Of a stretch of DNA of 64,000 bases, positions 201 through 35,919 are shown piece by piece (within the stretch, counting starts at the first letter, position 1; each line of letters starts with the position of its first letter). The stretch covers positions 3,308-67,307 of the forward strand of contig JALNWE010000008.1 in assembly GCA_023231065.1 (NCBI GenBank), in the 5' to 3' direction. Origin of the DNA: Bacteroidales bacterium. GTDB taxonomy: Bacteria; Bacteroidota; Bacteroidia; Bacteroidales; FEN-979. The notes below the pieces were generated by a model. It ran no database searches and was not told where the DNA came from. It worked only from the letters and a program-made list of their open reading frames with translations. The translations under genes were made by a program, and so were the position numbers.

Positions 201-1325
201 ATGAAAGAAGACATCAACCCGCCTGTCAGAAATATTGAGGAGGAATACCATATTAATATTGGCCCCCAGCATCCTTCCACCCACGGGGTCCTCCGGCTGG
301 TCGCCTCCCTCAAAGGAGAAACGGTAACAAGCCTGAAACCGCATTGCGGGTACATTCACCGGGGAATCGAGAAAATGTGTGAAAAAGACACTTATCCCCA
401 GGTCATTCATCTCACGGACAGGATGGACTACCTCTCGGCCCACATCAACAACCATGTCGTGTGTTTGCTTGTTGAAAAAGCGCTTGAAGTGGATGTTCCG
501 GAACGGGTACAATACATCCGTACCATCATGGACGAATTGACCCGTATTGCCTCCCACCAGCTGTGGTGGGGCTGTTTCGGAATGGACATGGGTGGGCAGA
601 CCTGTTTGCTTTACGGGATGCGCGACCGTGAAAAGATCCTTGATGCATTTGAGGAATCATGTGGTTCCCGTTTACTCCATAGTTATTATACACCGGGTGG
701 TTTGATGAAGGATATCCATCCCAATTTCCAGAAAAAGGTTAAAGATTTCATTAAATATTTCCGGAAAAAGATCCATGATTATGATTGCATCCTCACCGGG
801 AACGTCATCATGCAGGAAAGGACAAAAGGAGTTGGTATCCTTACCAAGGAAGAAGCGATCGACTATGGCGTTACCGGTCCCACAGGACGCGCGTCGGGAT
901 TTTCCTGCGATGTTCGCAAACGTTATCCTTATGGCGTTTATGATAGAGTAGGTTTCAAAGAGATCCTGGGGACCAAAGGCGATACCTTTGAACGCTATAT
1001 GATGAGGATGTTAGAAATGCGTGAGTCGATGAATATCATCGAGCAGCTCATCGACAACATTCCTGCCGGAGACTATACCGCCAAGATGAAAGCGGTGCTT
1101 AAACTTCCTGCCGGCGAATATTATCAGCGGGTAGAGTCCGCCCGTGGTGAACTGGGAGTTTATGTAGTGAGCGATGGCAATAAATCCCCATATCGTATGA
1201 AATTCCGCTCGCCGAATTTCTCAAACCTCAGTGCGCTTGACCATATATGCCGTGGATTTAAGATCGCAGACCTCATAGCAATCAGCGGATCCCTCGATTT
1301 TGTTATTCCCGATATTGACAGATAA
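201..1325 (+). CDS. nuoD: NADH-quinone oxidoreductase subunit D (49-kDa subunit)
   Basis: 374-aa ORF with [13 protein letters not shown] near the N-terminus and [11 protein letters not shown] plus a terminal DIDR, typical of NuoD/Nqo4. It lies between nuoC and nuoH. Confidence 0.95.
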
Positions 1326-1338
1326 TAAAAACTTATCT

Positions 1339-2427
1339 ATGGACTTTAGTATTTACGACTTAACGTCATTCGACCAGGGGATCGATAAATGCCTATACGA
1401 GAACCTGACCCCTTTCTGGGCAACTGTCGTGGAAATGACGCTCATTGGGTTAATCTTCCTGATCTTTTATGCACTGGTTGCTTTGTTCCTGATATATGCC
1501 GAACGTAAAGTATGTGCTTTCATGCAGAACAGGGTTGGTCCAAACCGGGTTGGCCCTTATGGCATCTTTCAGCTCATTGCCGACTTTATCAAGCTGATGC
1601 TGAAAGAGATAATTCCCATCAAAAATGCCGATAAATTTTTATTCAACCTGGCCCCCTTCATTGTGGTCATTGCCTCTTTCATGGCCATGGCCGCCATTCC
1701 TTTTGCTAAAGGGCTGCATGCTATCGATTTCGATATCGGTATCTTGTATGTGGTTGCGGTATCATCGATGGGTGTGATCGGGGTTTTATTAGCCGGCTGG
1801 TCGAGCAACAACAAATATTCGCTCATCGGCGCCATGCGGTCTGGGGCCATGATCGTGAGCTATGAATTATCGGTGGGGCTTTCGCTGCTTACCGTTGTCA
1901 TCCTGGCCGGAACAATGCAGTTCTCCGCCATTGTTGAAGGGCAGGCCAACGGATGGTTTATCTTCAAAGGACATCTTCCCGCCGTTATTGCTTTTATAAT
2001 CTATTTGATCGCTGGTACCGCTGAAGCAAATCGCGGGCCGTTTGACCTGGCCGAAGCCGAATCGGAATTGACGGCCGGATACCACACGGAGTATTCCGGG
2101 ATCAAGTTCGCCCTTTTCTATATGTGTGAATATATGAACATGTTTATTGTAGCCTCCATCGCTGCCACTGTATTTTTAGGTGGTTGGATGCCCCTTCATA
2201 TCAGCGGCTGGGAAGGTTTTAACCATGTCATGGATTTCATCCCGCCCTTTTTATGGTATCTCGGAAAGACCTTCGCTTTAGTCTGGGTGATAATGTGGTT
2301 CAAATGGACTTTTCCAAGGTTGCGGATCGACCAGGTGTTGACCCTTGAATGGAAATACCTTTTACCCATCAACCTGGTCAATATTCTTATTATGGCATTT
2401 ATTGTATTAATGGGTTGGCATTTTTAG
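1339..2427 (+). CDS. nuoH: NADH-quinone oxidoreductase subunit H (ND1)
   Basis: Polytopic membrane ORF with [17 protein letters not shown] and [18 protein letters not shown] motifs. ATG 1339 (MDFSIYDL) is preferred over the track start at 1300, which overlaps the nuoD 3' end. Confidence 0.92.
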
Positions 2428-2433
2428 AAAACT

Positions 2434-2916
2434 ATGAAGAGCTTTTTCAAATATTTTACTGGTATTTTTTACGGTGTAAAGTCACTCCTGTCGGGGTTGA
2501 GCGTCACCGGGAAATACTTTTTCAGCCCCGGGGCGATCGTTACCCAGCAGTATCCCGAGAACCGCAAGAAACTGGAAATGTTCGACCGGTTCAAAGGTGA
2601 AGTGGTCATGCCACACGACGAAAAGAACCACCATCGTTGCACGGGTTGCGGAATCTGTGGAAACAGTTGTCCTAACGGATCCATCGAGATCATCCAGGAT
2701 AAGATCGATACTCCCGATGGGAAAAAAGAACGGATTATCGGCAAACACATCTATCATTTGTCGATGTGCACTTTCTGCGGGCTCTGTATCAAATCATGTC
2801 CCTCCAATGCACTGGCATGGGGCCAGGAATTTGAACATGCTGTCTTCGACCGGTCCAAGCTGACCAAGATTTTAAATAAACCCGGATCATCCATTTCTAA
2901 AGATATTGCAGAATGA
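2434..2916 (+). CDS. nuoI: NADH-quinone oxidoreductase subunit I (2x[4Fe-4S] ferredoxin-type)
   Basis: 160 aa with two CxxCxxCxxxCP motifs (CTGCGICGNSCP, CTFCGLCIKSCP). Position in the operon fits. Confidence 0.92.
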   Translation: MKSFFKYFTGIFYGVKSLLSGLSVTGKYFFSPGAIVTQQYPENRKKLEMFDRFKGEVVMPHDEKNHHRCTGCGICGNSCPNGSIEIIQDKIDTPDGKKERIIGKHIYHLSMCTFCGLCIKSCPSNALAWGQEFEHAVFDRSKLTKILNKPGSSISKDIAE

Positions 2917-3425
2917 CGACCAATCAATTGATGTTCATAATCTTTTCGGCAATCATTATCATTTTTTCTGTCATGACTGTGACCAGCCGCCGAATACTCC
3001 GGGCTGCCACTTACCTGCTTTTTGTATTGGTGGCCACCGCGGGTTTGTATTTCCTGTTGCAATTCAACTTTCTGGCTGCCATCCAGCTTACTATTTATGT
3101 GGGCGGTATCGTGGTGCTGATCATCTTCTCTATTTTACTTACCAGTCATATCGGTGACAGGCTGGAAGCCCCTGGATGGAAAAAAATTGTTCCGGCAATT
3201 CTTGTAGCCACATTTGGCGCCGTGATTACCCTTATTACTGTACTACAATTTGATTTTCCAACAAAGGCCATAACCGGCAGTGAACGCACAGACATCCGCG
3301 AGATCGCGAAAAGCCTGGTCAGTACTGAAAAATTCGGATATTCCCTCCCCTTTGAAGTGATCAGCATCCTGCTGCTCGCCGCTATGGTGGGGGCCATCAT
3401 CCTGGCAAAGAAACGTGAAGATTAA
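2913..3425 (+). CDS. nuoJ: NADH-quinone oxidoreductase subunit J (ND6)
   Basis: 170-aa hydrophobic ORF. Its ATGA start overlaps the nuoI stop. Operon position between nuoI and nuoK. Confidence 0.88.
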   Translation: MTTNQLMFIIFSAIIIIFSVMTVTSRRILRAATYLLFVLVATAGLYFLLQFNFLAAIQLTIYVGGIVVLIIFSILLTSHIGDRLEAPGWKKIVPAILVATFGAVITLITVLQFDFPTKAITGSERTDIREIAKSLVSTEKFGYSLPFEVISILLLAAMVGAIILAKKRED

Positions 3426-3448
3426 TTTATATTTAATAGCAAAGCATT

Positions 3449-3766
3449 ATGTTTGAAGGCATTCCGTTACACTGGTTTCTCATTCTCGGCACCATCATGT
3501 TCTTTGTCGGTATTTATGGATTTCTGACCAGAAAAAACCTGATCACCATCCTTATGTCGATCGAGTTGATCCTCAATTCGGTCAACATCAACTTTGTCGC
3601 GTTTAACAAATTCCTTTACCCGGACCACCTGGAAGGAATGTTTTTCACGGTATTTATTATAGCTGTTGCCGCGGCAGAGACATCGATAGCCATTGCCATC
3701 ATCATCAATATATATCGCCGTCTGGTGGATATTGATGTGGATAAGATGAATAAAATGAAATATTAA
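3449..3766 (+). CDS. nuoK: NADH-quinone oxidoreductase subunit K (ND4L)
   Basis: 105-aa three-helix membrane protein (SIELILNSVNINFVAF, AVAAAETSIAIAII) with conserved membrane-embedded Glu residues. Operon position fits. Confidence 0.9.
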   Translation: MFEGIPLHWFLILGTIMFFVGIYGFLTRKNLITILMSIELILNSVNINFVAFNKFLYPDHLEGMFFTVFIIAVAAAETSIAIAIIINIYRRLVDIDVDKMNKMKY

Positions 3767-3822
3767 AAATTGTCAATTGACAATGAAGAAAAACGTAAGT
3801 AAAAATCGTAAATCGTTGACTT

Positions 3823-5748
3823 ATGATCGATTTTAGTTATACTGCCTGGATCCTGCTTCTTCCAATATTTCTGTTTATAGTGATTGGCTTGTTAGGGAAC
3901 CGGTTCAAACCGATTGTTTCAGGCATTGTCGGTACGTCGGGCCTGTTTATCATCTGGCTCTTGTCGTTGGTTACTGCATACAAATATTTCTTTGTTCTTG
4001 AGAAAGCTGCCGACGGATCCTTCCTGAAATTCATGGCCTTCAACATGCGCTGGCTGAACCTGACCGACAAGCTTCATATCGATATGGGCGTTTTACTTGA
4101 TCCCATATCGGTCATGATGCTCATTGTGATCACCACGGTTTCTTTAATGGTACATCTGTACTCTATTGGGTACATGCATGGCGAAAAAGGGTTTAGCCGG
4201 TTTTTTGCGTTGTTGTCGCTTTTCAGTTTTTCGATGCTGGGGCTGGTAGTGGCTACCAATATTTTCCAGATGTATGTTTTCTGGGAGCTTGTTGGGGTCT
4301 CTTCATATCTGCTTATTGGTTTTTACTACACCAAAGATTCTGCTGTTGCGGCTTCGAAGAAGGCCTTTATTGTGACCCGGTTTGCTGACCTGGGATTTCT
4401 CATCGGTATCCTGATGCTCTCTTATGTTACGGGCACCTTTGATTTCATTACCCTGACGGGGCCTGATAGTCCCGCCCTGACTTCAGGACAGGGGGTGTGG
4501 TTTCTCGGTCTTTCCACCATGACCTGGTCAATGATCTTTGTTTTTATGGGTGGCGCGGGAAAATCTGCCATGTTCCCGTTACACATCTGGTTGCCTGATG
4601 CCATGGAAGGACCGACCCCGGTTTCTGCCTTGATTCATGCAGCCACAATGGTCGTTGCAGGTGTTTACCTGGTTGCCCGCCTTTTTCCGATCTATGTTTT
4701 CTCAGCTCCGGTCGCGCTCGATATTGTCATGTGGGTGGGAGCTTTCAGCTCCATTTTTGCGGCCATTATCGCTTGTACCCAATACGATATCAAACGGGTA
4801 CTGGCTTATTCAACCATTTCGCAGATCGGGTTAATGATGTTTGGCCTGGGTGTTTCCGGTTACGGGGGCCATGAAGGGCTAGGGTACATGGCATCCATGT
4901 TCCATCTTTTTACCCATGCCTTTTTTAAAGCCCTGCTTTTCCTTGGCGCCGGGGCCATCATCCATGCCGTTCACAGCAATTATATGAACGATATGGGTGG
5001 GTTGCACAAGAATCTCCCCATTACCCATGCTACATTTCTGATCGCTTGTCTTGCCATTGCCGGAGTTCCGCCCTTAGCAGGGTTTTTCAGCAAGGATGAG
5101 ATTCTTGCGGCCGGTTCTGAAAGGAGCCTTTTATTATATTGGGTCGAAATGATCGTGTCGGGTTTAACGGCATTTTATATGTTCCGTCTCTATTTTTCCA
5201 TCTTCTGGGGAAAGAAACAGGAGTATCATCAGACCCCTCATGAAGCGCCGAAAACGATGACCATCCCGCTGATGATTTTAGCCTTAGGCGCCTTGTTGGC
5301 CGGGTTAATCCCCTTCTCGAATTTCGTTACCTCCGATCGCCTCCCGTTTGTATCACATTTAGATATGGGAATTGCTATTCCGGCGGTCCTGGTGGGGTTA
5401 ACAGGAATCGTTGTGGCAGCATTTTTCTATCTGAAAGAAACGGATATTCCGGATAAGGTTTTTAAAGCCCTGGGCAGCTTTTCACAAGCAGCTTTTCACA
5501 AATTCTATATTGATGAACTTTATCTTTTCATCACCAAAAAAATCATCTTTAACTATATTTCACGCCCTGTTGCCTGGTTTGACCGTCACATTGTGGATGG
5601 GGCGATGAACGGGTTAGCTTACATCACCAACGAAACCTCGGACCGTATCAAGAAACTCCAATCCGGACAACTTCAGCAATATGCCCTTGTTTTTATTTCG
5701 GGCGCTTTACTCCTCGTTTTGTTATTCGTTTATTTATGGACCAGCTAA
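3823..5748 (+). CDS. nuoL: NADH-quinone oxidoreductase subunit L (ND5, antiporter-like)
   Basis: 641 aa with HIWLPDAMEGPTPVSALIHAATMVVAGVYL, the signature of ND5/NuoL-type subunits. It has the long C-terminal extension expected for NuoL. Confidence 0.95.
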   Translation: MIDFSYTAWILLLPIFLFIVIGLLGNRFKPIVSGIVGTSGLFIIWLLSLVTAYKYFFVLEKAADGSFLKFMAFNMRWLNLTDKLHIDMGVLLDPISVMMLIVITTVSLMVHLYSIGYMHGEKGFSRFFALLSLFSFSMLGLVVATNIFQMYVFWELVGVSSYLLIGFYYTKDSAVAASKKAFIVTRFADLGFLIGILMLSYVTGTFDFITLTGPDSPALTSGQGVWFLGLSTMTWSMIFVFMGGAGKSAMFPLHIWLPDAMEGPTPVSALIHAATMVVAGVYLVARLFPIYVFSAPVALDIVMWVGAFSSIFAAIIACTQYDIKRVLAYSTISQIGLMMFGLGVSGYGGHEGLGYMASMFHLFTHAFFKALLFLGAGAIIHAVHSNYMNDMGGLHKNLPITHATFLIACLAIAGVPPLAGFFSKDEILAAGSERSLLLYWVEMIVSGLTAFYMFRLYFSIFWGKKQEYHQTPHEAPKTMTIPLMILALGALLAGLIPFSNFVTSDRLPFVSHLDMGIAIPAVLVGLTGIVVAAFFYLKETDIPDKVFKALGSFSQAAFHKFYIDELYLFITKKIIFNYISRPVAWFDRHIVDGAMNGLAYITNETSDRIKKLQSGQLQQYALVFISGALLLVLLFVYLWTS

Positions 5749-5760
5749 TACTATAGAACA

Positions 5761-7272
5761 ATGAGTATTCTGACACTATTTATCATCATACCGTTACTGA
5801 CTATTGTTGGTATCCTGTTCTGTAAGACCGACATGCAGGTAAAATGGGTTTCTGTTGCCGGTATGGGGCTGCAATTTATTAACGCCATCGCACTGATCCT
5901 TCTTTTCTTAGCCGAACGACGGGCCGGGAATATAGCTGAGGTTCTTTTTGTTCAGGATAATTTGTGGTATGAAACGCTCAATATTCATTTTCATGTTGGC
6001 GTTGACGGCGTTTCGGTTGCCATGATCGGGCTCACTTCCCTGGTGGTGTTTGCGGGGATTTTTGCAAGCTGGGAAATAAAGGACCTGCACCGTGAATTTT
6101 TCACATTTCTTATCCTTCTGTCCAGCGGGGTGTTTGGTTTCTTCATCAGCCTCGATTTGTTCACCATGTTCCTGTTTTATGAACTGGCCGTGATCCCGAT
6201 GTACCTGCTGATCGGAATTTGGGGAAGTGGCCCGCGGCATTATTCAGCGATGAAGCTCACGCTGATGTTGATGGGAGGTTCTGCACTGATCATGCTTGGG
6301 CTGATCGGCATTTACCTCAACTCCGCCCCCAATGGCGGACCCTTGACGTGGGATATCATAAAAATATCGAAAGAGACCCTCCCGATGGATATGCAGCGTT
6401 TTCTTTTCCCATTACTCTTTGTGGGATTTGGGGTGTTGGGAGCGATGTTCCCGTTCCACACATGGTCACCCGACGGTCATGCCTCGGCGCCAACCGCGGT
6501 TTCCATGCTCCATGCCGGCGTTCTGATGAAATTGGGCGGATATGGTTGTTACCGGGTTGCCGTGTTCCTTCTCCCGCAGGCCGCTCATCAGGTAGGTTGG
6601 ATTTTCCTGATCCTGGCCACGATCGGGGTCATTTATGGCGCTTTTGGCGCCCTCTGGCAAAAAGATCTTAAATACATCAACGCTTATTCTTCGGTCAGTC
6701 ATTGTGGCCTGGTGCTATTCGCCATTTTGATGTTCAACCAGACCGCGATGAACGGCGCTATCATGCAGATGATCTCCCATGGTATCATGACGGCCCTCTT
6801 CTTTGCCCTCATCGGGATGATATATGGAAGGACCCATACGCGCTATATCAATGAAATGGGAGGGTTGATGAAAGTCATGCCGTTCCTTTCGGTGGCTTAT
6901 GTTATCGCCGGTCTTGCTTCCTTAGGGCTTCCCGGGTTCAGTGGGTTTGTTGCTGAAATGACCATTTTTGTGGGCGCGTTTCAAAATGCCGATATTTTCC
7001 ACCGGGTGGTCACGATCATTGCCGCGTCTTCCATTGTGGTAACAGCTGTTTATATCTTACGCGTCGTGGGTATTTTACTGTTAGGGAAGATCCGTAATGA
7101 TGAATATGAACAACTCACTGACGCCAAATGGTATGATAAGATCAGTGTGGTATCATTAATCCTGGGCATTACCATCATCGGGGTGGCCCCACTGTGGCTT
7201 TCGGATATGATTACCGGGGGCCTGGGCCCGATCGTGCAAAAGCTGTTGGCGGCGGCGCCCATGATGCCTTAA
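5761..7272 (+). CDS. nuoM: NADH-quinone oxidoreductase subunit M (ND4)
   Basis: 503 aa with FPFHTWSPDGHASAPTAVSMLHAGVLMKLGGYG, an antiporter-like subunit motif. Operon position fits. Confidence 0.94.
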   Translation: MSILTLFIIIPLLTIVGILFCKTDMQVKWVSVAGMGLQFINAIALILLFLAERRAGNIAEVLFVQDNLWYETLNIHFHVGVDGVSVAMIGLTSLVVFAGIFASWEIKDLHREFFTFLILLSSGVFGFFISLDLFTMFLFYELAVIPMYLLIGIWGSGPRHYSAMKLTLMLMGGSALIMLGLIGIYLNSAPNGGPLTWDIIKISKETLPMDMQRFLFPLLFVGFGVLGAMFPFHTWSPDGHASAPTAVSMLHAGVLMKLGGYGCYRVAVFLLPQAAHQVGWIFLILATIGVIYGAFGALWQKDLKYINAYSSVSHCGLVLFAILMFNQTAMNGAIMQMISHGIMTALFFALIGMIYGRTHTRYINEMGGLMKVMPFLSVAYVIAGLASLGLPGFSGFVAEMTIFVGAFQNADIFHRVVTIIAASSIVVTAVYILRVVGILLLGKIRNDEYEQLTDAKWYDKISVVSLILGITIIGVAPLWLSDMITGGLGPIVQKLLAAAPMMP

Positions 7273-7330
7273 CGATGTATAATTTAGGTTTACGATATAG
7301 GAATTATTGATATAATAAAATTTCTGAACG

Positions 7331-8740
7331 ATGCTGATCATGAGACATGAATTACTGCTGATAGTTATCACGGTAATCCTATTGGTTGTCGAAATTTTTC
7401 TGCCCAATACCCGGAAGCGGAAGATCATTCTTCCGGCCATTCTGCTGATGGCAGCGGTAACGGTTATAGGTTTTTTCCCCGGCACACCGGGAATTTTGTT
7501 TGGCGGCATGTATCAGTCCACACAGCTCTCCATGTTACTGAAAAATATTCTGAATGTAGGCGTCCTGATTATTTTTATCCAGTCGGTTGACTGGCTGAAA
7601 CAGGATCAGAACAAGGAGAAGATCAGTGAATTTTATCTGCTGATGCTTTCGACGCTCATCGGGATGAACTATATGATCTCATCGGGCAATTTTCTGATGT
7701 TTTATCTTGGTCTTGAGCTGGCTACTATTCCGATCGCTGCATTGGCCGCTTATGAAAGGTTTAAAGAGAAATCGGCAGAAGCCGGGGTAAAACTGATCTT
7801 TATTTCAGCTTTGTCGTCGGGTATTTTATTATACGGACTTTCCATGATATACGGGACTACCGGAACAATGTACTTTGCCGATGTGGCGCCCCTGATCACC
7901 GGAGCCCCGCTACAGGTACTTGCTTTTATCTTCTTTTTCGCCGGAATGGCCTTTAAAATTTCACTGGTCCCGTTCCACCTGTGGACTGCCGACGTGTATG
8001 AAGGGTCCCCTGTAAATGTTGCATCGTATCTCTCGGTGATTTCCAAGGGAGCAGCCGTTTTCATTTTTACCATCATTCTTTACACGGTATTTACAAAAAT
8101 TGCCGTATTATGGAGTGAAGTCCTTTACGTGATCATCATTTTAACCATTACGGTAGGAAATCTCTTTGCGATGCGTCAGCAAAACCTGAAACGGTTTCTT
8201 GCATTCTCATCCATTGCCCAGGCAGGGTTCATCTTATTGGGTATCATTAGTCAAAGTCAGGTAGGCATGACCACCGTGATCTACTTTGTGCTGGTTTATA
8301 TTTTTTCCAACCTGGGCGCTTTTGGTGTTGTCGGCATCATTTCGAACCGCACCGGAAAAGAAACCATCAATGACTATGACGGGTTATATCGGACCAATCC
8401 CAAACTCAGCCTCGTGATGATGTTGGCCCTCTTTTCATTAGCCGGAATTCCTCCCCTGGCAGGATTTTTTGGGAAATTCTTCCTGTTTACCGCCGGGGCC
8501 AAGCAAGGATATTATATCCTGGTGCTGATCGCCCTGATCAATACCATTATTTCCTTATATTACTACCTGCTGGTGATCAAAGCGATGTTCCTTAACAACA
8601 GCGACCAACCCATTGCCTATTTTAAAAGCGATAATTATACGCGGTTGGGGCTGATCCTTTGTGTGGCCGGTATCGTGGTGATCGGGTTTACCAGTTCGGT
8701 TTATGAGTTGATTTATAACCTGAGTTTCGGATTGTATTAA
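7331..8740 (+). CDS. nuoN: NADH-quinone oxidoreductase subunit N (ND2)
   Basis: 469 aa with VPFHLWTADVYEGSPVNVASYLSVISKGAAV. It is the last antiporter-like subunit of the operon. An alternative ATG four codons in is possible. Confidence 0.92.
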   Translation: MLIMRHELLLIVITVILLVVEIFLPNTRKRKIILPAILLMAAVTVIGFFPGTPGILFGGMYQSTQLSMLLKNILNVGVLIIFIQSVDWLKQDQNKEKISEFYLLMLSTLIGMNYMISSGNFLMFYLGLELATIPIAALAAYERFKEKSAEAGVKLIFISALSSGILLYGLSMIYGTTGTMYFADVAPLITGAPLQVLAFIFFFAGMAFKISLVPFHLWTADVYEGSPVNVASYLSVISKGAAVFIFTIILYTVFTKIAVLWSEVLYVIIILTITVGNLFAMRQQNLKRFLAFSSIAQAGFILLGIISQSQVGMTTVIYFVLVYIFSNLGAFGVVGIISNRTGKETINDYDGLYRTNPKLSLVMMLALFSLAGIPPLAGFFGKFFLFTAGAKQGYYILVLIALINTIISLYYYLLVIKAMFLNNSDQPIAYFKSDNYTRLGLILCVAGIVVIGFTSSVYELIYNLSFGLY

Positions 8741-8756
8741 TGGAGGAAGGATAATT

Positions 8757-9086
8757 ATGGCAATGCTCAAAGGGAAACATGTAGTTACAGAAATAGAAGG
8801 AGTGCGGTGTACTGTTGTCGGGTCCGGGATTTCCGGTGAGCGTGCAGCGTTCCTGAAAGACCTGCTGGCCTATAACGGGTATGAAGTGAAAACAGAAGAG
8901 GAAAAAGCCAAAGATGGCTCCGGGACTGGCGCCTTCATTCTGGGGGTTACTGATCTTCTGATGAACCCGGTAATAAAGTTATTTCAGAAAAAGTTTTTCC
9001 GGAAAGACGGGAACGTAGTCAATGTGGCGTATTGGAATCAGTGGCCCGATCAATGGGATATCCCTTACTGTCAGATTCAGCATTAA
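8757..9086 (+). CDS. Hypothetical soluble protein (109 aa) trailing the nuo operon
   Basis: ORF starting 17 nt after the nuoN stop on the same strand. Composition is protein-like. I recognise no family. Confidence 0.45.
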   Translation: MAMLKGKHVVTEIEGVRCTVVGSGISGERAAFLKDLLAYNGYEVKTEEEKAKDGSGTGAFILGVTDLLMNPVIKLFQKKFFRKDGNVVNVAYWNQWPDQWDIPYCQIQH

Positions 9087-28953: not shown

Positions 28954-29037
28954 TGCTGTGAATAAATTCACAGTATGGTTTGACTTATTCAATAATATCA
29001 AAGTAATTCCTTCATTTTCAACTTATATCCACACCCG

Positions 29038-29610
29038 ATGATCACCCTTGGAACCCAGGAAAAAAACACCTTGTTAGCCGATGTCAACAAGCGCAGCGGC
29101 GCCAACGTGCTGGAATGTTATCAATGCGGGAAATGTGTCTCAACTTGTCCCGTGTCCCAGTATATGGATTTTCCGCCCCGCGTAATCATGCAGATGGTCA
29201 AGCTGGGCCTCAGGGATGAGGTTTATATGGCCAATTCCACTTGGTTTTGCCTCACCTGTTCAGCCTGTTCAGGAAGGTGCCCCCGTCAAATTGAGATCCC
29301 GGCTGTGATGGAAGCGATCCGGCATTTGGCCATCGAATCGAATTATGTGAACAATACCAGAAAGGTAAAATCGATCCGGACATTCCACAACATTTTCCTT
29401 GATATGATCAAACGTTACGGCCGTAGTTATGAGCTTAGGTTGATGGCCGAACATAACATCCGTACCCGCGATCTTTTCAAAGACATGAGCCTGGCCCCGG
29501 TGGCGTTGCTCAGAGGGAAGATACCGCTGTTGGTGAAACCGGTAAAGAGCGCCAAAGCCATCCGGCGCATGTTCAAATTGGCTGACAAATTGGAAAAGAA
29601 GCATCAATAA
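29038..29610 (+). CDS. hdrC: Heterodisulfide reductase subunit C-like 2x[4Fe-4S] protein
   Basis: 190 aa with CYQCGKCVSTCP and CLTCSACSGRCP motifs separated by the helical spacer typical of HdrC. It is followed by hdrB and hdrA. Confidence 0.85.
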   Translation: MITLGTQEKNTLLADVNKRSGANVLECYQCGKCVSTCPVSQYMDFPPRVIMQMVKLGLRDEVYMANSTWFCLTCSACSGRCPRQIEIPAVMEAIRHLAIESNYVNNTRKVKSIRTFHNIFLDMIKRYGRSYELRLMAEHNIRTRDLFKDMSLAPVALLRGKIPLLVKPVKSAKAIRRMFKLADKLEKKHQ

Positions 29611-29622
29611 TCCGATCCCGAC

Positions 29623-30567
29623 ATGAAGAAAATAACCTATTTTCCGGGTTGTTCCGCGCACGGTACAAGCGAAGAATTCGAAAAAACCGTGAGAATGGTC
29701 ATGGAACACCTGGGTGTCCAACTGGAAGACATTCCAGACTGGAACTGTTGTGGCGCCACTTCTGCCCACACGCTGAATGAAAGTCTTTCTTACGCGCTCC
29801 CGCTCAGGAACCTCGTGTTAGCCGAAAAACTCAACAACGCCACGATGGCCATCCCCTGCGCCTCATGTTATCAGCGTATGAAAGTGACCAAAGTCCACAT
29901 GGACGGGAATCCGGAATTATGCAAAGAAATCAGTTCAACACTTGTTGAAGAAGGAGCTTATCAAGGCAGGATTGCCGTGAAATCCATGCTTCAATACTGT
30001 TATGAAGATATCGGATTAGAGGCCATTAAAGCTAAAGTAACGAAATCTTTAGCCGGGATGAAGCTGGCTTGCTATTATGGATGCCTCCTGACACGTCCCC
30101 AGGCGATTACCCAATTCGATTCACCAGAATATCCTATGTCAATGGACTATATCGTGGAGGCGCTGGGGGCCAAAGCTACTGAATTTGACTATAAGACCGA
30201 ATGCTGCGGCGCCTCCTTTTCTATTTCCAATTCGGATGTTGTACTCAACCTTACCGGAAAGATCCTGGAGATGGCCAAAGAGAGCGGCGCTCAGGCCATC
30301 GTGGTGGCTTGTCCGCTGTGCCAGTCAAACCTTGATATGCGGCAACCGGGTGCAGAAAAACGCGCGGGAAAGAAATTTGACCTTCCAATTTTTTATTTCA
30401 CGCAACTGATGGCCCTCGCTTTCGGTATGCCTGAAAAAGAGTTGATGTTCAATAAAAATATCGTTCCTGTTGAAAAGGCCTTGGCCAACATCGGAAAAAT
30501 TGAACCCACTCCCGAAAAAATTAAAAAACCTAAAAAAGCTGTTGAAGCAGAAAGCGAGGTTGAATAA
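29623..30567 (+). CDS. hdrB: Heterodisulfide reductase subunit B-like protein (two CCG domains)
   Basis: 314 aa. There are two cysteine-rich CCG motifs (WNCCGATSAH with upstream YFPGCS and CASCY; TECCGASFSI with YYGC and CPLCQ). Confidence 0.88.
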   Translation: MKKITYFPGCSAHGTSEEFEKTVRMVMEHLGVQLEDIPDWNCCGATSAHTLNESLSYALPLRNLVLAEKLNNATMAIPCASCYQRMKVTKVHMDGNPELCKEISSTLVEEGAYQGRIAVKSMLQYCYEDIGLEAIKAKVTKSLAGMKLACYYGCLLTRPQAITQFDSPEYPMSMDYIVEALGAKATEFDYKTECCGASFSISNSDVVLNLTGKILEMAKESGAQAIVVACPLCQSNLDMRQPGAEKRAGKKFDLPIFYFTQLMALAFGMPEKELMFNKNIVPVEKALANIGKIEPTPEKIKKPKKAVEAESEVE

Positions 30568-32540
30568 TGGCCCGAGTAGGAGTATTTGTTTGTTTTTGCG
30601 GCGCCAATATCGCCGACTTTGTTGATGTTCCCCAGGTGGTGGAAGAAACCAAAAAAATCCGTGAGGTAAAATTCGCCATCCATTATAAATACATGTGTTC
30701 CGATCCAGGGCAGCAGCAGATTCGCGATGCCATAGTTCAGCACCGGCTCACATCTGTCGTCGTAGCCGCGTGTTCCCCACGGATGCATGAAAAGACATTC
30801 CGGAAAGCCCTTTCGGATGCCGGGATGAACCCGTACCTGCTGGAAGTGGCCAACATACGGGAACATTCATCCTGGGTCCACCAGAAAGATAAAAAAGCTG
30901 CTACCGAAAAAGCTGCTGACCTGATACGGATGGCTGTTGCCAAATCGATAGCCAACGAACAATTGCATGAAATTTCAGTTCCGGTAACCAAACGCGCCCT
31001 GGTGATAGGAGGCGGTATCGCCGGTATCCAGGCTGCGCTGGACATTGCCGATGCGCGGATCCCGGTGGTACTGGTTGAAAAGAGCCCTTCCATCGGCGGC
31101 AAGATGGCCCAACTGGATGAAACATTTCCCACCCTGGATTGTTCCCAGTGTATTTTGACCCCCAAAATGGTGGATGTGGCTTCCCATCCTTATATCGAGC
31201 TGATCCCTTATTCCGAGGTCATTGAGCTCGACGGATTCGTGGGTAATTATAAAGCTAAGATCAGGAAGAAAGCCTCGTACGTGAATTTCAAAACCTGTAC
31301 CGGCTGTGGCGCCTGCTGGCAAAAATGTCCGGTGAAGGTTCCCAATGAATATAATATGGGATTAGACAACCGGAAAGCAATTTATACTCCTTTCCCGCAA
31401 GCAGTGCCTAACAAACCCGTGATCGATGCGGGGCATTGCAATATGCTCACCAAAGGGAAGTGTGGAATTTGTGCCAAGGTTTGTGAAAAAGGTTCCATTG
31501 ATTACAAGATGCAGGATGAGATCATTGAGCGGGAAATCGGCGCCGTGGTTGTCGCTACCGGTTATGACCTGTGGGATCCCAAGCCATACGAAGAATACGG
31601 GGTAGGACGTCATAAGGATATCATCACTTCCCTTGAGTTCGAACGGATGGTTTCGGCCAATGGCCCTACCAATGGTGTTCCTGTTCGGCCATCAGATGGA
31701 AAAGTACCTAAAAACGTTGTTTTTATCAAATGTATCGGATCACGCGATGAAGCCAAAGGGATAGAATACTGTTCCAAGATCTGCTGCATGTACACTACCA
31801 AGCATACCATCCTGCTGCACCACAAGGTACATGATTCACATTCCTATGTCTTTTATATGGACATCAGGGCAGCAGGAAAAGGTTACGAAGAGTTTGTCAA
31901 GAAGGCGCAAGTCGATACAGCTGCAACCTATCTTCGCGGACGGGTTTCGAAAATTTATAAAAAAGGCGATAAGCTGATCGTCCGTGGCGAGGATGCCCAG
32001 ATCGGGGAAGTTGTGGAGGTGGTTGCCGACCTTGTGGTATTGGCCACTGCCGTGATTGCCCCCAAAGATAATCCGGATCTCGCCCGTTTATTGGGTGTAT
32101 CTTACGATAAATACGGTTACATGTCGGAAGCCCATCCGAAACTCCGGCCGGTCGAAACGGCAAAAGCCGGTATTTTCTTAGCCGGCTGTACGCAGGCCCC
32201 GAAAGATATTCCCGATACGGTTGCCCAGGCGTCGGCTTGTGCGGCCAAAGTATGCGGACTTTTTTCGGGGGATACCATGAAGAAAGACCCGATGATCTCC
32301 ACGGTAAACAACGAATATTGTTCTGGTTGCCAGAACTGCGTAAAGGTTTGTCCTTACGGGGCCATTGTCACGGAAGAAGTTCCGATGGGCCATGGCTCCA
32401 AGGAGATGCGTGTTGTTGCCAGGATCAACGAAGGCGTTTGCCAGGGATGTGGTTCCTGTGTGGCTGTCTGCCGCAGCATGGCGATCACCCTGGCTGGTTT
32501 TACCGATTCTCAAATCATTAACGAGATAGTTTCAATCTGA
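30567..32540 (+). CDS. hdrA: Heterodisulfide reductase subunit A-like FAD/FeS flavoprotein
   Basis: 657 aa with an N-terminal VFVCFCGANI Cys cluster and a Rossmann motif ALVIGGGIAGIQAALDIA. It has four ferredoxin-type motifs (CTGCGACWQKCP, CGICAKVCEKG, CSGCQNCVKVCP, CQGCGSCVAVC). Its ATG overlaps the hdrB TAA by 1 nt. Confidence 0.92.
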   Translation: MARVGVFVCFCGANIADFVDVPQVVEETKKIREVKFAIHYKYMCSDPGQQQIRDAIVQHRLTSVVVAACSPRMHEKTFRKALSDAGMNPYLLEVANIREHSSWVHQKDKKAATEKAADLIRMAVAKSIANEQLHEISVPVTKRALVIGGGIAGIQAALDIADARIPVVLVEKSPSIGGKMAQLDETFPTLDCSQCILTPKMVDVASHPYIELIPYSEVIELDGFVGNYKAKIRKKASYVNFKTCTGCGACWQKCPVKVPNEYNMGLDNRKAIYTPFPQAVPNKPVIDAGHCNMLTKGKCGICAKVCEKGSIDYKMQDEIIEREIGAVVVATGYDLWDPKPYEEYGVGRHKDIITSLEFERMVSANGPTNGVPVRPSDGKVPKNVVFIKCIGSRDEAKGIEYCSKICCMYTTKHTILLHHKVHDSHSYVFYMDIRAAGKGYEEFVKKAQVDTAATYLRGRVSKIYKKGDKLIVRGEDAQIGEVVEVVADLVVLATAVIAPKDNPDLARLLGVSYDKYGYMSEAHPKLRPVETAKAGIFLAGCTQAPKDIPDTVAQASACAAKVCGLFSGDTMKKDPMISTVNNEYCSGCQNCVKVCPYGAIVTEEVPMGHGSKEMRVVARINEGVCQGCGSCVAVCRSMAITLAGFTDSQIINEIVSI

Positions 32541-33025
32541 TGGAAGCAGTAGCAAACAAACAACTTGTAAGCATTGAGAAACCCGAAATCGCGGCCCCTC
32601 CCGATTGGGAACCGGTGATCATCGGAATTCTCTGCAACTGGTGTTCTTATGCCGGTTCCGATCTTACCGGGACCTCGCGGATCCAGTATCCACCCAATAT
32701 CCGTATCATCCGTGTGCCTTGTTCTTCACGCGTGGATCCCTGGTTCCTCATCAAATCGTTGCAAACAACGGCTGATGGGGTACTTGTTTCGGGGTGCCAT
32801 CCGGGCGACTGCCACTATATCAGCGGTAATTACTATGCCCGCCGGAGGTTTCTGGTGACGAAAAAGTTACTCAATTTTGTCGGTTTTCATGAAGACCGGA
32901 TCCAATTTTCCTGGGTTTCGGCTGCCGAAGGCCCCAAATTTGCACAAGTTGTTGCCAAAGTAACCGGGGATATCAAGAAACTGGGCCCGCTTCATTTGTA
33001 TAAAAAAGAAAACTTCGAGAAATAA
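32540..33025 (+). CDS. mvhD: MvhD/FlxD-like [2Fe-2S] electron-transfer subunit
   Basis: 161 aa with ILCNWCSYAGSDLTG...IRIIRVPCSSRVDP...DGVLVSGCHPGDCHY, the MvhD (methyl-viologen-reducing hydrogenase delta) signature. It has 1-nt overlaps with hdrA and with the next gene. Confidence 0.9.
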   Translation: MEAVANKQLVSIEKPEIAAPPDWEPVIIGILCNWCSYAGSDLTGTSRIQYPPNIRIIRVPCSSRVDPWFLIKSLQTTADGVLVSGCHPGDCHYISGNYYARRRFLVTKKLLNFVGFHEDRIQFSWVSAAEGPKFAQVVAKVTGDIKKLGPLHLYKKENFEK

Positions 33026-33876
33026 TGGACTATACGAATCAAATCCGGGAGATTGCAACCAGGCTTTTTACCGAAGATAAGATCGATGTTTTTGTCGGTT
33101 ACCGGATGACAGGTTTTGATGATAACCAGGTACCGGCGCTGATCCGGGATCCCAAGGAGGTATCACAACTGGTTTTTACCGACAAATCGGTTTTCAACCT
33201 GACCAATTATCTCAAGAATGAGCATACGCGCAACAAGCGTGTGGGATTGGTAGTGAAGGGTTGCGATAGCCGTTCACTGAACCTGCTACTCACCGAAAGC
33301 CAGGTAAAACGCGATAAGTTATATGTTATCGGAATTGCCTGTGAAGGAGTTATTGATGAGGCAGGAAATAAAATGCAAAACTGCATGGAATGTGTTGTTC
33401 CCGATGCCGTGGTATATGATGAAATGGTAGGGACGCCAAAGGGGAAACAGGGGTATCAGGTGAATGCTGATATTCATGAACTCGCCTCGAAAGAGTTGGT
33501 TGAGCGACGCGCTTACTTCGAAGAGATATTTGAGAATTGCATCCGCTGCAACGCTTGTCGTCATTCCTGTCCGATGTGTTACTGTGCAAAATGCTGTATC
33601 GATCAGGAAACGTCAACACTCTATAACGGAGCCAACACTAAATCCAGCGCCTTCCATGCCCTGATGACCTGGTCGCTGCATTTAGCAGGCCGTTGCGTTG
33701 ATTGTCGTAATTGCGAAAAAGCCTGTCCAAGCCATTTGCCCCTTCACCTGTTGCACAAATGGAATGAGCGGGTGATTTTTGAGAACTTCCAGGAACACCT
33801 GGCAGGCGTGCAGGAAGGTGATCGCGGCGCTTTTTACAAATACAGCATGCAGGATCCCAATGATTTTATCATGTAA
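33025..33876 (+). CDS. FlxC-like iron-sulfur protein (2x[4Fe-4S])
   Basis: 283 aa with CIRCNACRHSCPMCYC and CVDCRNCEKACP. Position and cofactor motifs correspond to the FeS subunits of FlxABCD and sulfhydrogenase-beta-like proteins. Orthology is not verifiable here. Confidence 0.6.
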   Translation: MDYTNQIREIATRLFTEDKIDVFVGYRMTGFDDNQVPALIRDPKEVSQLVFTDKSVFNLTNYLKNEHTRNKRVGLVVKGCDSRSLNLLLTESQVKRDKLYVIGIACEGVIDEAGNKMQNCMECVVPDAVVYDEMVGTPKGKQGYQVNADIHELASKELVERRAYFEEIFENCIRCNACRHSCPMCYCAKCCIDQETSTLYNGANTKSSAFHALMTWSLHLAGRCVDCRNCEKACPSHLPLHLLHKWNERVIFENFQEHLAGVQEGDRGAFYKYSMQDPNDFIM

Positions 33877-33890
33877 CCCCTCTTTCTGAT

Positions 33891-34940
33891 ATGAACGTTG
33901 AAACATTTGTTACCGATAAAGCTGGCCTGGTAAAATTTTACGAAGCCATCATTGCCAATAACGAAACTTATGCCCCGGTCGAGAAGTTCGGGAAGTTTGA
34001 TTTCAAAAGGGTTTTAACTCTTGCTGAATGTGACCCTGATTCGCCCATCACAAAGACCATGAGCGCCAAGCCCTTGTTTTTCCCGCGTTCGGCTAAAATC
34101 CTGAAATATTCGGCAGATGCTTCCGGCACCGATGTTAAAGAAACCGATGAAGATCCGTTGACCGGAAAACGGGTAATCCTTGGAATGAAACATTGCGATG
34201 CCCGCGGCCTGCAGGTTTTGGACAAAGTATATAACTGGGATTATATCGATTCGGATTATCAGAAACGGCGTCAAAACAGCGTAATCATTTCTTCCCGTTG
34301 TGACAAAGCAGAAACTCACTGCTTTTGTACTTCCCTCGATTACGATGTGGAAAATCTCGATGCCATGGATGTGCTGATCGTGCATGGGCTGGACGGAAAG
34401 ATCTTCATTAAAGCAAGAACTGAGAAAGGGGAGACTTTCCTTAAAGCAAACCCCATTGATCCGGCATCCGGCATCCAACATTCAGCATCCGAAGAAGGGA
34501 TGAAAAAGCAATACGATGCTTTTGCAGCATCCTTCCGTTTGAAAATGGATTATAAAAATGTTAACGGAAAACTTTCAAAGATCTTTGATACCCCTGAATT
34601 TGAAAATGTTTCGGCCAGTTGTATCGGTTGCAATACCTGTGCTTTTATTTGTCCAACCTGTCATTGTTTCAAGATATCCGACGAAAAAATCAAAGATACA
34701 GGGATCCGTTATAAAAGCTATGATTCCTGTAATAATGGCTATTTTACTTTGATGGCCGGCGGTCATAATCCCCGTCCGGTCAAATACCGCCGGTGGCGTC
34801 AGCGGGCCATGCACAAGTTTGTTTACTACAAAGAACGCTTTGGCGAAAACCTATGCGTGGGCTGTGGAAGATGCGCTATTTCCTGTCCGGTGAACATCAG
34901 CATTTTTGAAGTGGTGAACCAGGTTGCGACAACGGTATAG
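33891..34940 (+). CDS. FlxB / AsrA / sulfhydrogenase-beta-like iron-sulfur protein
   Basis: 349 aa with CIGCNTCAFICPTCHCF and CVGCGRCAISCP plus upstream Cys (CDARG, CFC). This resembles the AsrA/HydB family that partners an AsrB/HydG-type flavoprotein. Confidence 0.65.
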   Translation: MNVETFVTDKAGLVKFYEAIIANNETYAPVEKFGKFDFKRVLTLAECDPDSPITKTMSAKPLFFPRSAKILKYSADASGTDVKETDEDPLTGKRVILGMKHCDARGLQVLDKVYNWDYIDSDYQKRRQNSVIISSRCDKAETHCFCTSLDYDVENLDAMDVLIVHGLDGKIFIKARTEKGETFLKANPIDPASGIQHSASEEGMKKQYDAFAASFRLKMDYKNVNGKLSKIFDTPEFENVSASCIGCNTCAFICPTCHCFKISDEKIKDTGIRYKSYDSCNNGYFTLMAGGHNPRPVKYRRWRQRAMHKFVYYKERFGENLCVGCGRCAISCPVNISIFEVVNQVATTV

Positions 34941-34943
34941 TTT

Positions 34944-35021
34944 GATGATGTGATGATGTGATGATGTGATGATGTGATGATGTGATGATGTGATGATGTG
35001 ATGATGTGATGATGTGATGAT
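34944..35021. repeat. Octanucleotide tandem repeat (GATGATGT) x 9.75
   Basis: Nine perfect contiguous 8-bp units (34944-35015) plus a 6-nt partial unit. It starts 3 nt after the TAG stop of the preceding gene and ends 64 nt before ATG 35086. Confidence 0.97.
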
Positions 35022-35085
35022 ATTCAAAACCATAAAGATAGTTCAGAGTTTAAACTAAGTAAAATATTTCAATAATAATTCTTCC

Positions 35086-35919
35086 ATGGAACAGTTGTTA
35101 GTCCCGATGATCTGCAGGATCGATAAAATGATCCAGGAAACCCCCGATGTCCGTACGTATCGTTTGAAGTTCAAGGAAGAAGGGTTGATGGAAAAATTCA
35201 GGTGGATGCCTGGTCAGTTTGTGGAATTTTCGTTGCTTGGTTCCGGGGAGTGTACTTTTTGCATCTCTTCTTCGTCAACCCGGAAAGGGTATTTTGATTG
35301 TTCGATCAAAAAGGCAGGATTAGTAACTGCGGACATCCACCGTCTGCTTGATGAAGGGGATTATGTTGGGATCCGGGGGCCCTTTGGCAATTGGTTCCCG
35401 TTGGACGAAATCAAAGGGAAGAACCTGCTTTTTGTGGGTGGTGGTATCGGTCTTGCGCCCCTCCGCGCACTCATCCAGTATTGCATCGACAACCGCAACG
35501 ATTATAAGGATTTCACCATTCTTTATGGCGCCCGCACTTCTGCCGATCTATGTTACAAGGACGAAATCAAGGAATGGCAGGAAAACCCGTTGCTGAAAGT
35601 CATATTGACCATTGACAAACCCGAAGAAGCCTGGCCCACCAACGTGGGAGTGGTCCCCAAGATCCTTGAAGAAGTTGTAAAGCCTGTGATCGAAAACACA
35701 AAGGTGATCACCTGTGGTCCCCCGATCATGATCAAATATACCATCCAGTCGTTAAAAAAACTTGGTTTTGCCGACCCTGACATCATCACCACCCTCGAGA
35801 TGAGGATGCAGTGTGGTTTAGGGAAGTGTGGCCGGTGCAACATCGGATCGACCTATGTATGCAAAGACGGACCAGTGTTTACCAACGAGCAATTAAGGGG
35901 TTTGCCGGACGAGTTCTAG
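35086..35919 (+). CDS. FlxA / AsrB / HydG-like FAD- and NAD(P)H-binding oxidoreductase with C-terminal [2Fe-2S]
   Basis: 277 aa with a ferredoxin-reductase-type fold (PGQFVEFSL, LLFVGGGIGLAPLRAL) and the C-terminal cluster motif CGLGKCGRCNIGSTYVCKDGPVF, as in the PyrK/AsrB/HydG family. Confidence 0.85.
   Translation: MEQLLVPMICRIDKMIQETPDVRTYRLKFKEEGLMEKFRWMPGQFVEFSLLGSGECTFCISSSSTRKGYFDCSIKKAGLVTADIHRLLDEGDYVGIRGPFGNWFPLDEIKGKNLLFVGGGIGLAPLRALIQYCIDNRNDYKDFTILYGARTSADLCYKDEIKEWQENPLLKVILTIDKPEEAWPTNVGVVPKILEEVVKPVIENTKVITCGPPIMIKYTIQSLKKLGFADPDIITTLEMRMQCGLGKCGRCNIGSTYVCKDGPVFTNEQLRGLPDEF

Follow-up and report, generated by a model that had tools for sequence, protein, structure and literature searches.

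The window analysed here, i.e. a stretch of 64,000 nucleotides (nt) from a Bacteroidales bacterium (assembly GCA_023231065.1, contig JALNWE010000008.1, positions 3,308 to 67,307 of the forward strand), contains at 29038-35919 seven co-oriented genes on the plus strand that are predicted to encode an Flx-Hdr complex, and all seven open reading frames (ORFs) were recovered exactly where an initial annotation, made from the sequence alone, had placed them. The genome searched comprises 3.37 Mb on 169 contigs and is 96.7% complete. The first gene, hdrC (29038-29610), encodes a dicluster ferredoxin of 190 amino acids (aa) with two [4Fe-4S] motifs (2 x CxxCxxCxxxC, cysteines at residues 27-37 and 71-81), which is matched below cut-offs by the Pfam models Fer4_8/9/17 and by the NCBIfam HdrC models. 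It is followed by hdrB (29623-30567; 314 aa) with two CCG domains (PF02754 x2), which are the site of disulfide reduction in known Hdr enzymes; HdrB keeps both CCG motifs with all ten cysteines and aligns over its full length with the solved HdrB subunits of 8RVU (8rvu_b), 7BKB and 5ODC (5odc_B). The flavin adenine dinucleotide (FAD) subunit HdrA (hdrA, 30567-32540; 657 aa) has N-terminal, inserted and C-terminal Fe-S domains, carries a GGGIAG motif, three canonical 4Fe-4S motifs and additional Cys clusters, and can be aligned from end to end with the solved 5ODC_A (722 bits), scoring 808 bits against NCBIfam HdrA2. The gene flxD (32540-33025; 161 aa) encodes an MvhD-type [2Fe-2S] connector (PF02662 FlpD, E 5e-50).

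The remaining three genes encode the predicted donor side. FlxC (flxC, 33025-33876; 283 aa) is an FdhB/FrhB-like Fe-S protein with 16 cysteines which has only weak Fer4 matches in Pfam and a weak FrhB_FdhB_C match in its N-terminal half; it can be aligned to the Fe-S portion of FdhB in Fdh-Hdr complexes (PDB 8rvu_E, 7bkb_E), the type of subunit contacting MvhD in the solved complexes, and its family is always placed between flxD and flxB in the relatives examined. FlxB (flxB, 33891-34940; 349 aa) is an Fe-S subunit of the HydB/ShyB/AsrA type (PF17179 Fer4_22) matching 9nez_B, the beta subunit of P. furiosus sulfhydrogenase I (E 3e-37), and both FlxC and FlxB contain two canonical 4Fe-4S motifs each plus extra conserved cysteines. 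FlxA (flxA, 35086-35919; 277 aa) is a flavoprotein of the HydG/AsrB type with FAD_binding_6, NAD_binding_1 and DHODB_Fe-S_bind domains and a [2Fe-2S] motif C-x4-C-x2-C...C, matching the gamma subunit 9nez_C of sulfhydrogenase I with an aligned Cys motif (E 3e-58), and it is the predicted entry site for reduced nicotinamide adenine dinucleotide (phosphate), NAD(P)H.

The genes are tightly packed, with one-base overlaps at hdrB/hdrA (ATAATG), hdrA/flxD (CTGATG) and flxD/flxC (ATAATG) and intergenic gaps of 12 nt (hdrC/hdrB), 14 nt (flxC/flxB) and 145 nt (flxB/flxA). The overlaps and the completeness of the cofactor motifs had been described in the initial annotation and were both borne out. FlxB and FlxA also match the models of anaerobic sulfite reductase (Asr) subunits AsrA and AsrB (121 and 208 bits, respectively) and the sulfhydrogenase beta/gamma models; since all NCBIfam scores lie below the curated equivalog cut-offs, no subunit is a bona fide CoB-CoM Hdr, sulfhydrogenase or Asr protein. 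The cluster consists of one hdrC and one hdrB followed by hdrA and flxDCBA, and the second hdrC2-hdrB2 pair and the lipoate-binding proteins expected of sulfur-oxidising sHdr systems are absent from it. Judged by sequence, the seven genes thus constitute a regular, intact hdrCBA-flxDCBA (Flx/Flox-Hdr) operon. This agrees with the FlxABCD-HdrABC-type identity proposed initially, as FlxB/FlxA are homologues of sulfhydrogenase beta/gamma, FlxC is FdhB-like and HdrABC and MvhD are matched over their full length. The gene order had been called reversed, which does not hold: hdrCBA-flxDCBA is the published order (PMC12125255) and the order in all relatives.

We found the cluster to be strongly conserved. 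HdrC is present in 36 of 39 congeneric species (30 of 31 among genomes at least 90% complete) and FlxC in 23 of 24, with protein identities of 77-95% across the cluster. To look beyond the genus we used an order-wide sample of 301 Bacteroidales genomes, each at least 90% complete, from approximately 137 families and 200 genera, in which the cluster occurs in 38 genomes and 33 genera. Every complete relative, from at least seven phyla, shows the order hdrC-hdrB-hdrA-flxD-flxC-flxB-flxA, including Syntrophomonadaceae, Gelria, Peptococcaceae, Desulfosporosinus, Chlorobiaceae, Zixibacteria, Calditrichota and Thermoanaerobaculaceae (Acidobacteriota), other Bacteroidota, and the Bacteroidales loci lying on long enough contigs (36 loci examined). 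The immediate neighbours in the window are unrelated proteins sorted by the type IX secretion system, and the flanking genes are not shared even by close relatives; the flanks varying while the seven genes stay together suggests the cluster travelling as a unit kept by selection. In FastTree trees of five concatenated proteins, in which deep branches are unsure, the lineage of this genome (families f1, f109 and f5) forms a long-stemmed clade nested in a well-supported group with Zixibacteria, Calditrichota, Chlorobiaceae and other Bacteroidota (the Fibrobacteres-Chlorobi-Bacteroidetes, FCB, group). A recent transfer from Desulfobacterota or Firmicutes is unsupported, as those clades lie apart in the trees, and the possibility raised at the outset of a recent, idle acquisition is ruled out by the conservation in nearly all congeners, so that the Flx-Hdr assignment stood this check. 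The G+C content of the cluster is 47.5% compared to 43.6% for the genome, and near-intact copies of the stretch are found in landfill, sludge and groundwater metagenomes. No RNA data set is among those listed for the stretch, which speaks neither for nor against its expression.

Upstream of the operon we identified a predicted Rex-type operator, TGTGAA-TAAA-TTCACA (28957-28972), a fully palindromic site inside CTGTGAATAAATTCACAG whose distance upstream of the hdrC ATG is 66-81 nt and which matches 16 of 18 positions of the consensus TTGTGAA-N4-TTCACAA. Rex binding this consensus represses at low NADH/NAD+ and releases its targets when NADH is high (PMC5317091). The exact pattern TGTGAA-N4-TTCACA occurs at two sites in the entire genome, the second being located in a hydrogenase island. 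Allowing the half-site variant TGTTAA/TTAACA yields ten sites, all intergenic, of which three lie in the hydrogenase island, one lies by a gene for a PTA_PTB-family phosphotransacylase, one by a gene for a large FAD/[2Fe-2S] oxidoreductase, and one, TGTTAATTATTTCACA (C8:2123-2138, just before the window on the same contig), 18 nt upstream of nuoA. The genome carries a gene for Rex at C1:58525. An equivalent palindrome precedes hdrC by 23-81 nt in all 30 congeneric species examined, perfect in 27 and with one mismatch in three, and a Rex-like box occupies a fixed -16/-18 position before nuoA in 28 of 30; half-sites being conserved while the spacers vary are the signature of a protein-binding site. 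A box also precedes hdrC in some other Bacteroidales families. With both operator and Rex gene present, the hdr-flx operon fits a predicted Rex regulon, and since Rex represses at low NADH/NAD+, an operon under its control would be expected to consume NADH, in line with FlxA as the NADH entry site.

The presence of a Rex-type box before nuoA directs attention to complex I. The window opens with nuoD-H-I-J-(K)-L-M-N (201-8740, plus strand; NCBIfam), the proposed partner outside the operon, with nuoA and nuoB at C8:2141-3033 just before the window and no nuoEFG between nuoD and nuoH; the NuoEFG-less complex I noted earlier approximately 20 kb upstream of the operon (nuoD, H, I, J, L, M and N) is thereby confirmed. 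At least ten congeners have nuoA and hdrC in the same orientation on a single contig, separated by 17-21 kb. Other families show direct junctions. Family f125, one of whose genomes is closed (3.9 Mb), has a gap of 34 nt between flxA and a downstream nuoA-B-C-D-H-I-J encoding Nuo proteins 61-81% identical to those of our genome; the same flxA-nuoA junction occurs in f78 and f123 with gaps of approximately 200 nt, and with one extra gene in between in f10. In f109, which is the sister family of this lineage, hdrCBA-flxDCBA comes after nuoM-nuoN and a small ORF. In f162 (L168:5228-14886 and L171) nuoI...nuoN and the same small ORF lead into flxD-flxC-flxB-flxA without an intervening hdrCBA. At the loci L155:3077-14638 (closed genome G507; flxA-nuoA gap 34 nt), L154, L163, L177 and L167, hdrCBA-flxDCBA-nuoA-B-C-D-H-I-J-K thus forms one co-directional array of approximately 18 genes.

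These junctions are accompanied by a phyletic tie. In a sample of 181 genomes (26 Flx-positive, 155 Flx-negative), of which 77 have NuoA, the protein is found in 25 of the 26 Flx-positive genomes, the remaining one lying outside the NuoA matches listed, compared to 52 of the 155 Flx-negative ones (34%; p 7e-10); as all co-occurrence numbers given here, these are raw genome counts, and related genomes are not independent samples. The co-occurrence of the cluster with 11-subunit nuo operons, suggested by the initial annotation as a check across Bacteroidota, thereby holds within Bacteroidales. Directly after nuoN lies a conserved 108-aa ORF (8757-9080, plus strand) that belongs to no Pfam family; ORFs 45-48% identical to it occur at the nuoN/flxD (L168, L171) and nuoN/hdrC (L185) junctions in two other families, and its product may be a so far unrecognised subunit of the 11-subunit complex I with an accessory or adaptor role. 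As a separate observation, in a genus-level relative (L013:7746-12301) flxA is followed by a second, divergent nuo-like operon with a NuoF-type (Complex1_51K) subunit, i.e. a set of the 14-subunit type and unlike the 11-subunit one.

A further pattern concerns the two Na+-pumping redox complexes Rnf and Nqr. Most Bacteroidales of the order-wide sample have RnfC (252 of 301) and NqrA (244 of 301). Among Flx-positive genomes, RnfC is present in nine and absent from 29, compared to 243 present and 20 absent (8% without) in Flx-negative genomes (odds ratio 0.026); the numbers for NqrA are nine and 29 versus 235 and 28 (11% without; odds ratio 0.037), and both are absent from 25 of the 38 Flx-positive genomes. 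Fisher p-values overstate this association because related genomes are not independent; within families, ten contain both Flx-positive/Rnf-negative and Flx-negative/Rnf-positive members and none shows the opposite (sign test, p 0.002). RnfC occurs in three of 24 congeners, and the only high-quality congener without the cluster is one of those three. In our genome no RnfC was found, a tblastn search with the six rnf genes of a congener returned no match, and the syntenic spot, located on a small contig, holds no rnf; RnfA, D and E resembling Nqr subunits, the empty search also argues against Nqr. Flx-Hdr marks Bacteroidales with an 11-subunit Nuo that are without the two Na+-pumping redox complexes typical of the order.

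How the seven subunits would be wired can largely be read from homologous structures. Three of the four junctions follow from homology: FlxA-FlxB corresponds to the NADPH-linked gamma and beta subunits of sulfhydrogenase I, FlxC-FlxD to FdhB-MvhD, and FlxD-HdrA-HdrBC to 5ODC. For the fourth, which has no solved analogue, complex prediction gave an ipSAE of 0.79 for FlxB-FlxC compared to 0.01 for the best control; this ipSAE mark is reached by 58 of 80 solved complexes and by 2 of 110 mismatched pairs, a calibration that applies only roughly because our own alignments were used for the prediction. The runs agree in at least 86% of contacts, with a pLDDT (predicted local distance difference test) of the partner of at least 83. 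In the model the interface is formed by FlxB 244-254 and 329-340 facing FlxC 171-181 and 229-239, which brings cluster-binding loops face to face, and FlxB is therewith predicted to dock on FlxC.

Gene content, motifs and homologies, conservation, the operator footprint and the genomic associations are observed here; how electrons travel and in which direction, the tie to Nuo through ferredoxin and all catalytic activities are inferred. The FAD of FlxA would take a hydride from NAD(P)H, and electrons would pass from the [2Fe-2S] cluster of FlxA via the Fe-S clusters of FlxB and FlxC to the [2Fe-2S] cluster of FlxD and on to the FAD of HdrA. There the electron pair would be split, one electron going uphill to ferredoxin through the ferredoxin domains of HdrA and the other downhill via HdrC and the two non-cubane clusters of HdrB to a disulfide or persulfide. 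Rex would hold the operon off and be released at high NADH/NAD+, NADH oxidation being the normal direction, and the complex would link the pools of NADH and ferredoxin in these Rnf/Nqr-less Bacteroidales. The simplest tie to complex I would be reduced ferredoxin, made by the complex and oxidised by the 11-subunit Nuo; reduced ferredoxin is also the donor of NuoEFG-less complex I guessed in genome papers on this phylum group (PMC7509429, PMC6338057). The earlier suggestion of such a ferredoxin supply gains comparative support from the adjacency in six families, the co-occurrence with NuoA and the shared Rex-type operators, while the supply itself is what we infer. We consider it moderately probable that the genes encode one soluble, NADH-oxidising and ferredoxin-reducing bifurcating Flx-Hdr complex working with complex I.

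On the acceptor side, the intact CCG sites of HdrB argue for the existence of a disulfide-type acceptor, and we searched genome and order for it. The sole DsrC-family protein of the genome (C50:7397-7690) has the C-terminus ...KKAAKIAGISKPASCV, in which the penultimate Cys is kept and Ala occupies the position of the second redox Cys. DsrC-family proteins occur in 17 of 38 Flx-positive and 79 of 263 Flx-negative Bacteroidales genomes (p 0.09); being present in only 17 of the 38, the family provides no obligate partner, and DsrC in this role was rejected for both the single Cys and the weak co-occurrence. Bacillithiol was rejected as the thiol, BshC not being found in the genome, and this phylum is not known to employ the coenzyme M/coenzyme B heterodisulfide CoM-S-S-CoB. 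The genome contains no NIR_SIR (PF01077) protein, i.e. no DsrAB, AsrC or CysI, and no [NiFe] hydrogenase large subunit (PF00374); it carries one pyruvate:ferredoxin oxidoreductase (PFOR) and seven [FeFe]-hydrogenase-like genes, six of them within one island. The initial annotation had named no thiol/disulfide partner, and none emerged from the genome-wide and the order-wide search. The acceptor might be a persulfide carried by TusA, DsrE or the single-Cys DsrC-like protein, or else a low-molecular-weight thiol; co-occurrence backs none of these.

Three other loci of the genome carry related proteins. At C50 (L010:5265-9701) genes for a cysteine-desulfurase-like, a DsrE-like and the single-Cys DsrC/TusE-like protein, a 221-aa protein of no family and a pyridine-nucleotide-disulfide oxidoreductase form what may be a cytoplasmic sulfur-relay cluster. 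C47 (L008:7546-14680) encodes a DsrE2-like protein, TusA, MvhD, a 930-aa GltD/HdrA fusion, a 666-aa HdrA-like protein and a 372-aa QmoC-like membrane protein, by gene content a putative Qmo-like complex with an NAD(P)H module beside sulfur-carrier genes and with no CCG subunit. C21 (L009:3879-9559) encodes EtfB, EtfA, a 439-aa Fe-S protein, a 264-aa two-CCG protein and a 594-aa FadE-type acyl-CoA dehydrogenase; it is predicted to be an Etf-linked Fe-S reductase set resembling the one found in syntrophic fatty-acid oxidisers, and its two-CCG protein was accordingly rejected as a thiol:fumarate reductase.

Several points weigh against a bifurcating complex that works with complex I. Its cycle cannot turn over without a route to re-oxidise the thiol, and here the sole member of the DsrC family carries a single Cys, no member was found in 21 of 38 Flx-positive Bacteroidales genomes and the missing BshC leaves no partner from the bacillithiol route. 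In this genome a 20-kb stretch of unrelated genes lies between nuoN and hdrC, direct adjacency is seen in six of approximately 24 Flx-positive families, and most of these families have no nuo gene within 7 kb of the cluster. The co-occurrence with Nuo and the absence of Rnf/Nqr may mirror a common lifestyle instead of a shared pathway. The box before hdrC is missing in many other Bacteroidales families, and Rex was assigned from motif and footprint only. Some of these points would suit a classical, stand-alone Flx-Hdr transferring electrons from NADH to ferredoxin and to a diffusible or protein thiol, e.g. a sulfur-carrier persulfide, with no special tie to complex I: besides the distance to nuo in most families, the cluster is self-contained here with neighbours unconserved in congeners, sulfur-trafficking proteins (TusA, two DsrE-like, the single-Cys DsrC-like) have their genes at other loci of the genome, and the same operon occurs outside Bacteroidota in organisms with different partners. 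Set against this are three types of junction joining hdr-flx or flxDCBA to nuo in six families, which is unlikely by chance, NuoA in 25 of 26 Flx-positive genomes but in about a third of the others, and Rex-type boxes before both hdr-flx and nuo in the genus, so that we regard a stand-alone enzyme as somewhat unlikely. The idea that the last three genes are Asr with AsrC elsewhere or belong to an Mvh- or sulfhydrogenase-linked Hdr, or that the cluster is recent and idle, is hardly credible: the matches of FlxB and FlxA to AsrA, AsrB and the sulfhydrogenase beta/gamma models speak for it, yet the scores stay below the curated cut-offs and the genome has neither a NIR_SIR protein nor a [NiFe] large subunit, while an idle cluster is contradicted by its retention in the genus and its nesting in the FCB group in the concatenated tree. 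With the searches negative, including the one for AsrC proposed at the outset, and the cluster conserved, this explanation is refuted within the limits of genome completeness and the Flx-Hdr assignment survives.

The nuo-flxDCBA array of f162 prompts a bolder reading according to which Flx plugs into Nuo directly. In its broader form, Bacteroidales that have lost Rnf and Nqr would use Flx(-Hdr) as the electron input that their 11-subunit, NuoEFG-less complex I lacks, either docked or obligately coupled, with electrons from NADH bifurcated to ferredoxin and, via complex I, to menaquinone, and the disulfide not being the terminal acceptor; we judge this unlikely. The stricter form, in which FlxABCD, alone or together with HdrABC, takes the position of NuoEFG on the 11-subunit complex I and feeds electrons from NAD(P)H straight into the Fe-S chain of Nuo, with menaquinone instead of a disulfide as the high-potential acceptor, appears rather improbable. 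The lack of hdrCBA between nuoI...N, the small ORF and flxDCBA in f162, the flxA-nuoA gap of 34 nt in f125, the 108-aa protein of no family conserved at the nuoN junction in three lineages and the failure to find an obligate thiol partner all fit a physical module, but HdrB retaining every CCG cysteine points to a real disulfide-type substrate and a link mediated by ferredoxin explains the gene adjacency equally well. The complex might also run in reverse, reduced ferredoxin from PFOR and thiol together reducing NAD+ (confurcation), as a soluble stand-in for Rnf. Electron transfer from ferredoxin to NAD+ is the normal task of Rnf in this order, Flx-Hdr turns up in genomes devoid of Rnf, PFOR is present in the genome, and the D. 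vulgaris enzyme is reported to run in reverse too, during fermentation (PMC12125255), which counts against NADH oxidation as the normal direction as well. We nevertheless consider confurcation quite improbable: Rex frees its targets at high NADH, fitting consumers of NADH over producers, the HydABC-type hydrogenase loci of the genome could already use NADH and ferredoxin together, and a net oxidant for the thiol would still be required.

Within the operon, the 145-nt flxB-flxA spacer is of note, in which a perfect 8-bp tandem array, TGATGATG x 9.9 (34943-35021; Tandem Repeats Finder score 158), begins two bases past the flxB stop codon. Identical arrays occur on contigs C3, C106, C135 and C140 of the same genome, and congeners have other 8-nt arrays or an inserted cassette at the same spot, the spacer length ranging from 26 to 497 nt. 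Logan contigs from four metagenome runs end within the array, where the depth rises 20- to 70-fold; as the metagenome contigs break there, the number of repeat copies and the precise junction of flxB and flxA are given as in the original assembly. In one congener (L011:6690-7200) the spacer carries a 122-aa gene of the 23S_rRNA_IVP family between inverted 8-nt repeat arrays, i.e. a small cassette inserted into the operon. This record (SACF01000072.1) is labelled as an alphaproteobacterial metagenome-assembled genome (MAG); its cluster is 78-95% identical to the Bacteroidales operon and, since it groups inside the genus in the tree, the record is probably mis-binned.

Compared to known systems, the kind of enzyme is familiar. 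The Desulfovibrionaceae hdrCBA-flxDCBA complex has been proposed to be an NADH oxidiser bifurcating to ferredoxin and DsrC (PMC12125255), and by the published description the FlxABCD-HdrABC of D. vulgaris Hildenborough and Bilophila wadsworthia shares with our cluster the seven subunit types and the operon order (PMC12125255). The sequences compared were those of Desulfobacterota MAGs, among them a relative labelled Desulfovibrionaceae with the order hdrA-flxD-flxC-flxB-flxA and 30-58% identity. Unlike the Desulfovibrionaceae, our genome has no DsrAB, DsrMKJOP or two-cysteine DsrC and no alcohol dehydrogenase adjacent to the cluster, which instead has a Rex-type operator and a genomic tie to the 11-subunit nuo. 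The Flox-Hdr of syntrophs (Syntrophomonas, Syntrophorhabdus, Pelotomaculum) has the same seven-gene order in Syntrophomonadaceae loci, likewise has no identified disulfide partner and is combined with HydABC and Etf-linked Fe-S reductases (PMC5017805), both of which are found in our genome too; the identity is 30-59%, the syntroph proteins form a separate clade in the tree and their loci show no linkage to nuo. In the Riftia symbiont Endoriftia, Hdr-Flx is a module inside the operon of another pathway, the reductive tricarboxylic acid cycle cluster, with a proposed supply of low-potential electrons (PMC11636981); its partners are 2-oxoglutarate:ferredoxin oxidoreductase, thiol:fumarate reductase and a DsrC-like protein, whereas the recurrent partner here is complex I, and by analogy it is a precedent for context-specific wiring.

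More distant relatives share parts of the complex. The methanogen complexes MvhADG-HdrABC and FdhAB-HdrABC-MvhD (5ODC, 7BKB, 8RVU) contain full-length homologues of HdrA, HdrB, HdrC and MvhD, and FlxC resembles FdhB; the predicted donor is an NAD(P)H flavoprotein chain here and a hydrogenase or formate dehydrogenase there. P. furiosus sulfhydrogenase I (9NEZ) can be aligned with FlxB/FlxA almost from end to end, the cysteines of the Fe-S and [2Fe-2S] motifs being kept, and provides a diaphorase wire to NAD(P)(H); in our cluster there are no hydrogenase alpha or delta subunits and FlxB is predicted to dock on FlxC. From sulfur-oxidising sHdr the cluster differs by its single hdrC and hdrB. A full-text literature search, which did not cover key Flx and Rex regulon papers, found no paper joining Flx-Hdr to Bacteroidales, to NuoEFG-less complex I or to Rex. 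What is new is the context, i.e. the Rex-type operator, a tie to the 11-subunit complex I that recurs both physically and phyletically, and a near-exclusion between the cluster and Rnf or Nqr, the kind of enzyme being already known.

As a summary, our data join two long-open questions, i.e. the role of Flx-Hdr in anaerobes that do not respire sulfate and the electron donor of the 11-subunit complex I in Bacteroidota, Chlorobi and relatives, and the comparative pattern makes both of them testable, closed genomes with the hdrCBA-flxDCBA-nuoA...N array among the relatives being possible models. If the link to complex I fails, the cluster is an ordinary, well-conserved member of a known enzyme family. 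If it is true, Flx-Hdr would provide a second, soluble and bifurcation-based connection of the NADH, ferredoxin and quinone pools in a major group of anaerobic degraders living in landfills, sludge, groundwater and lake sediments.

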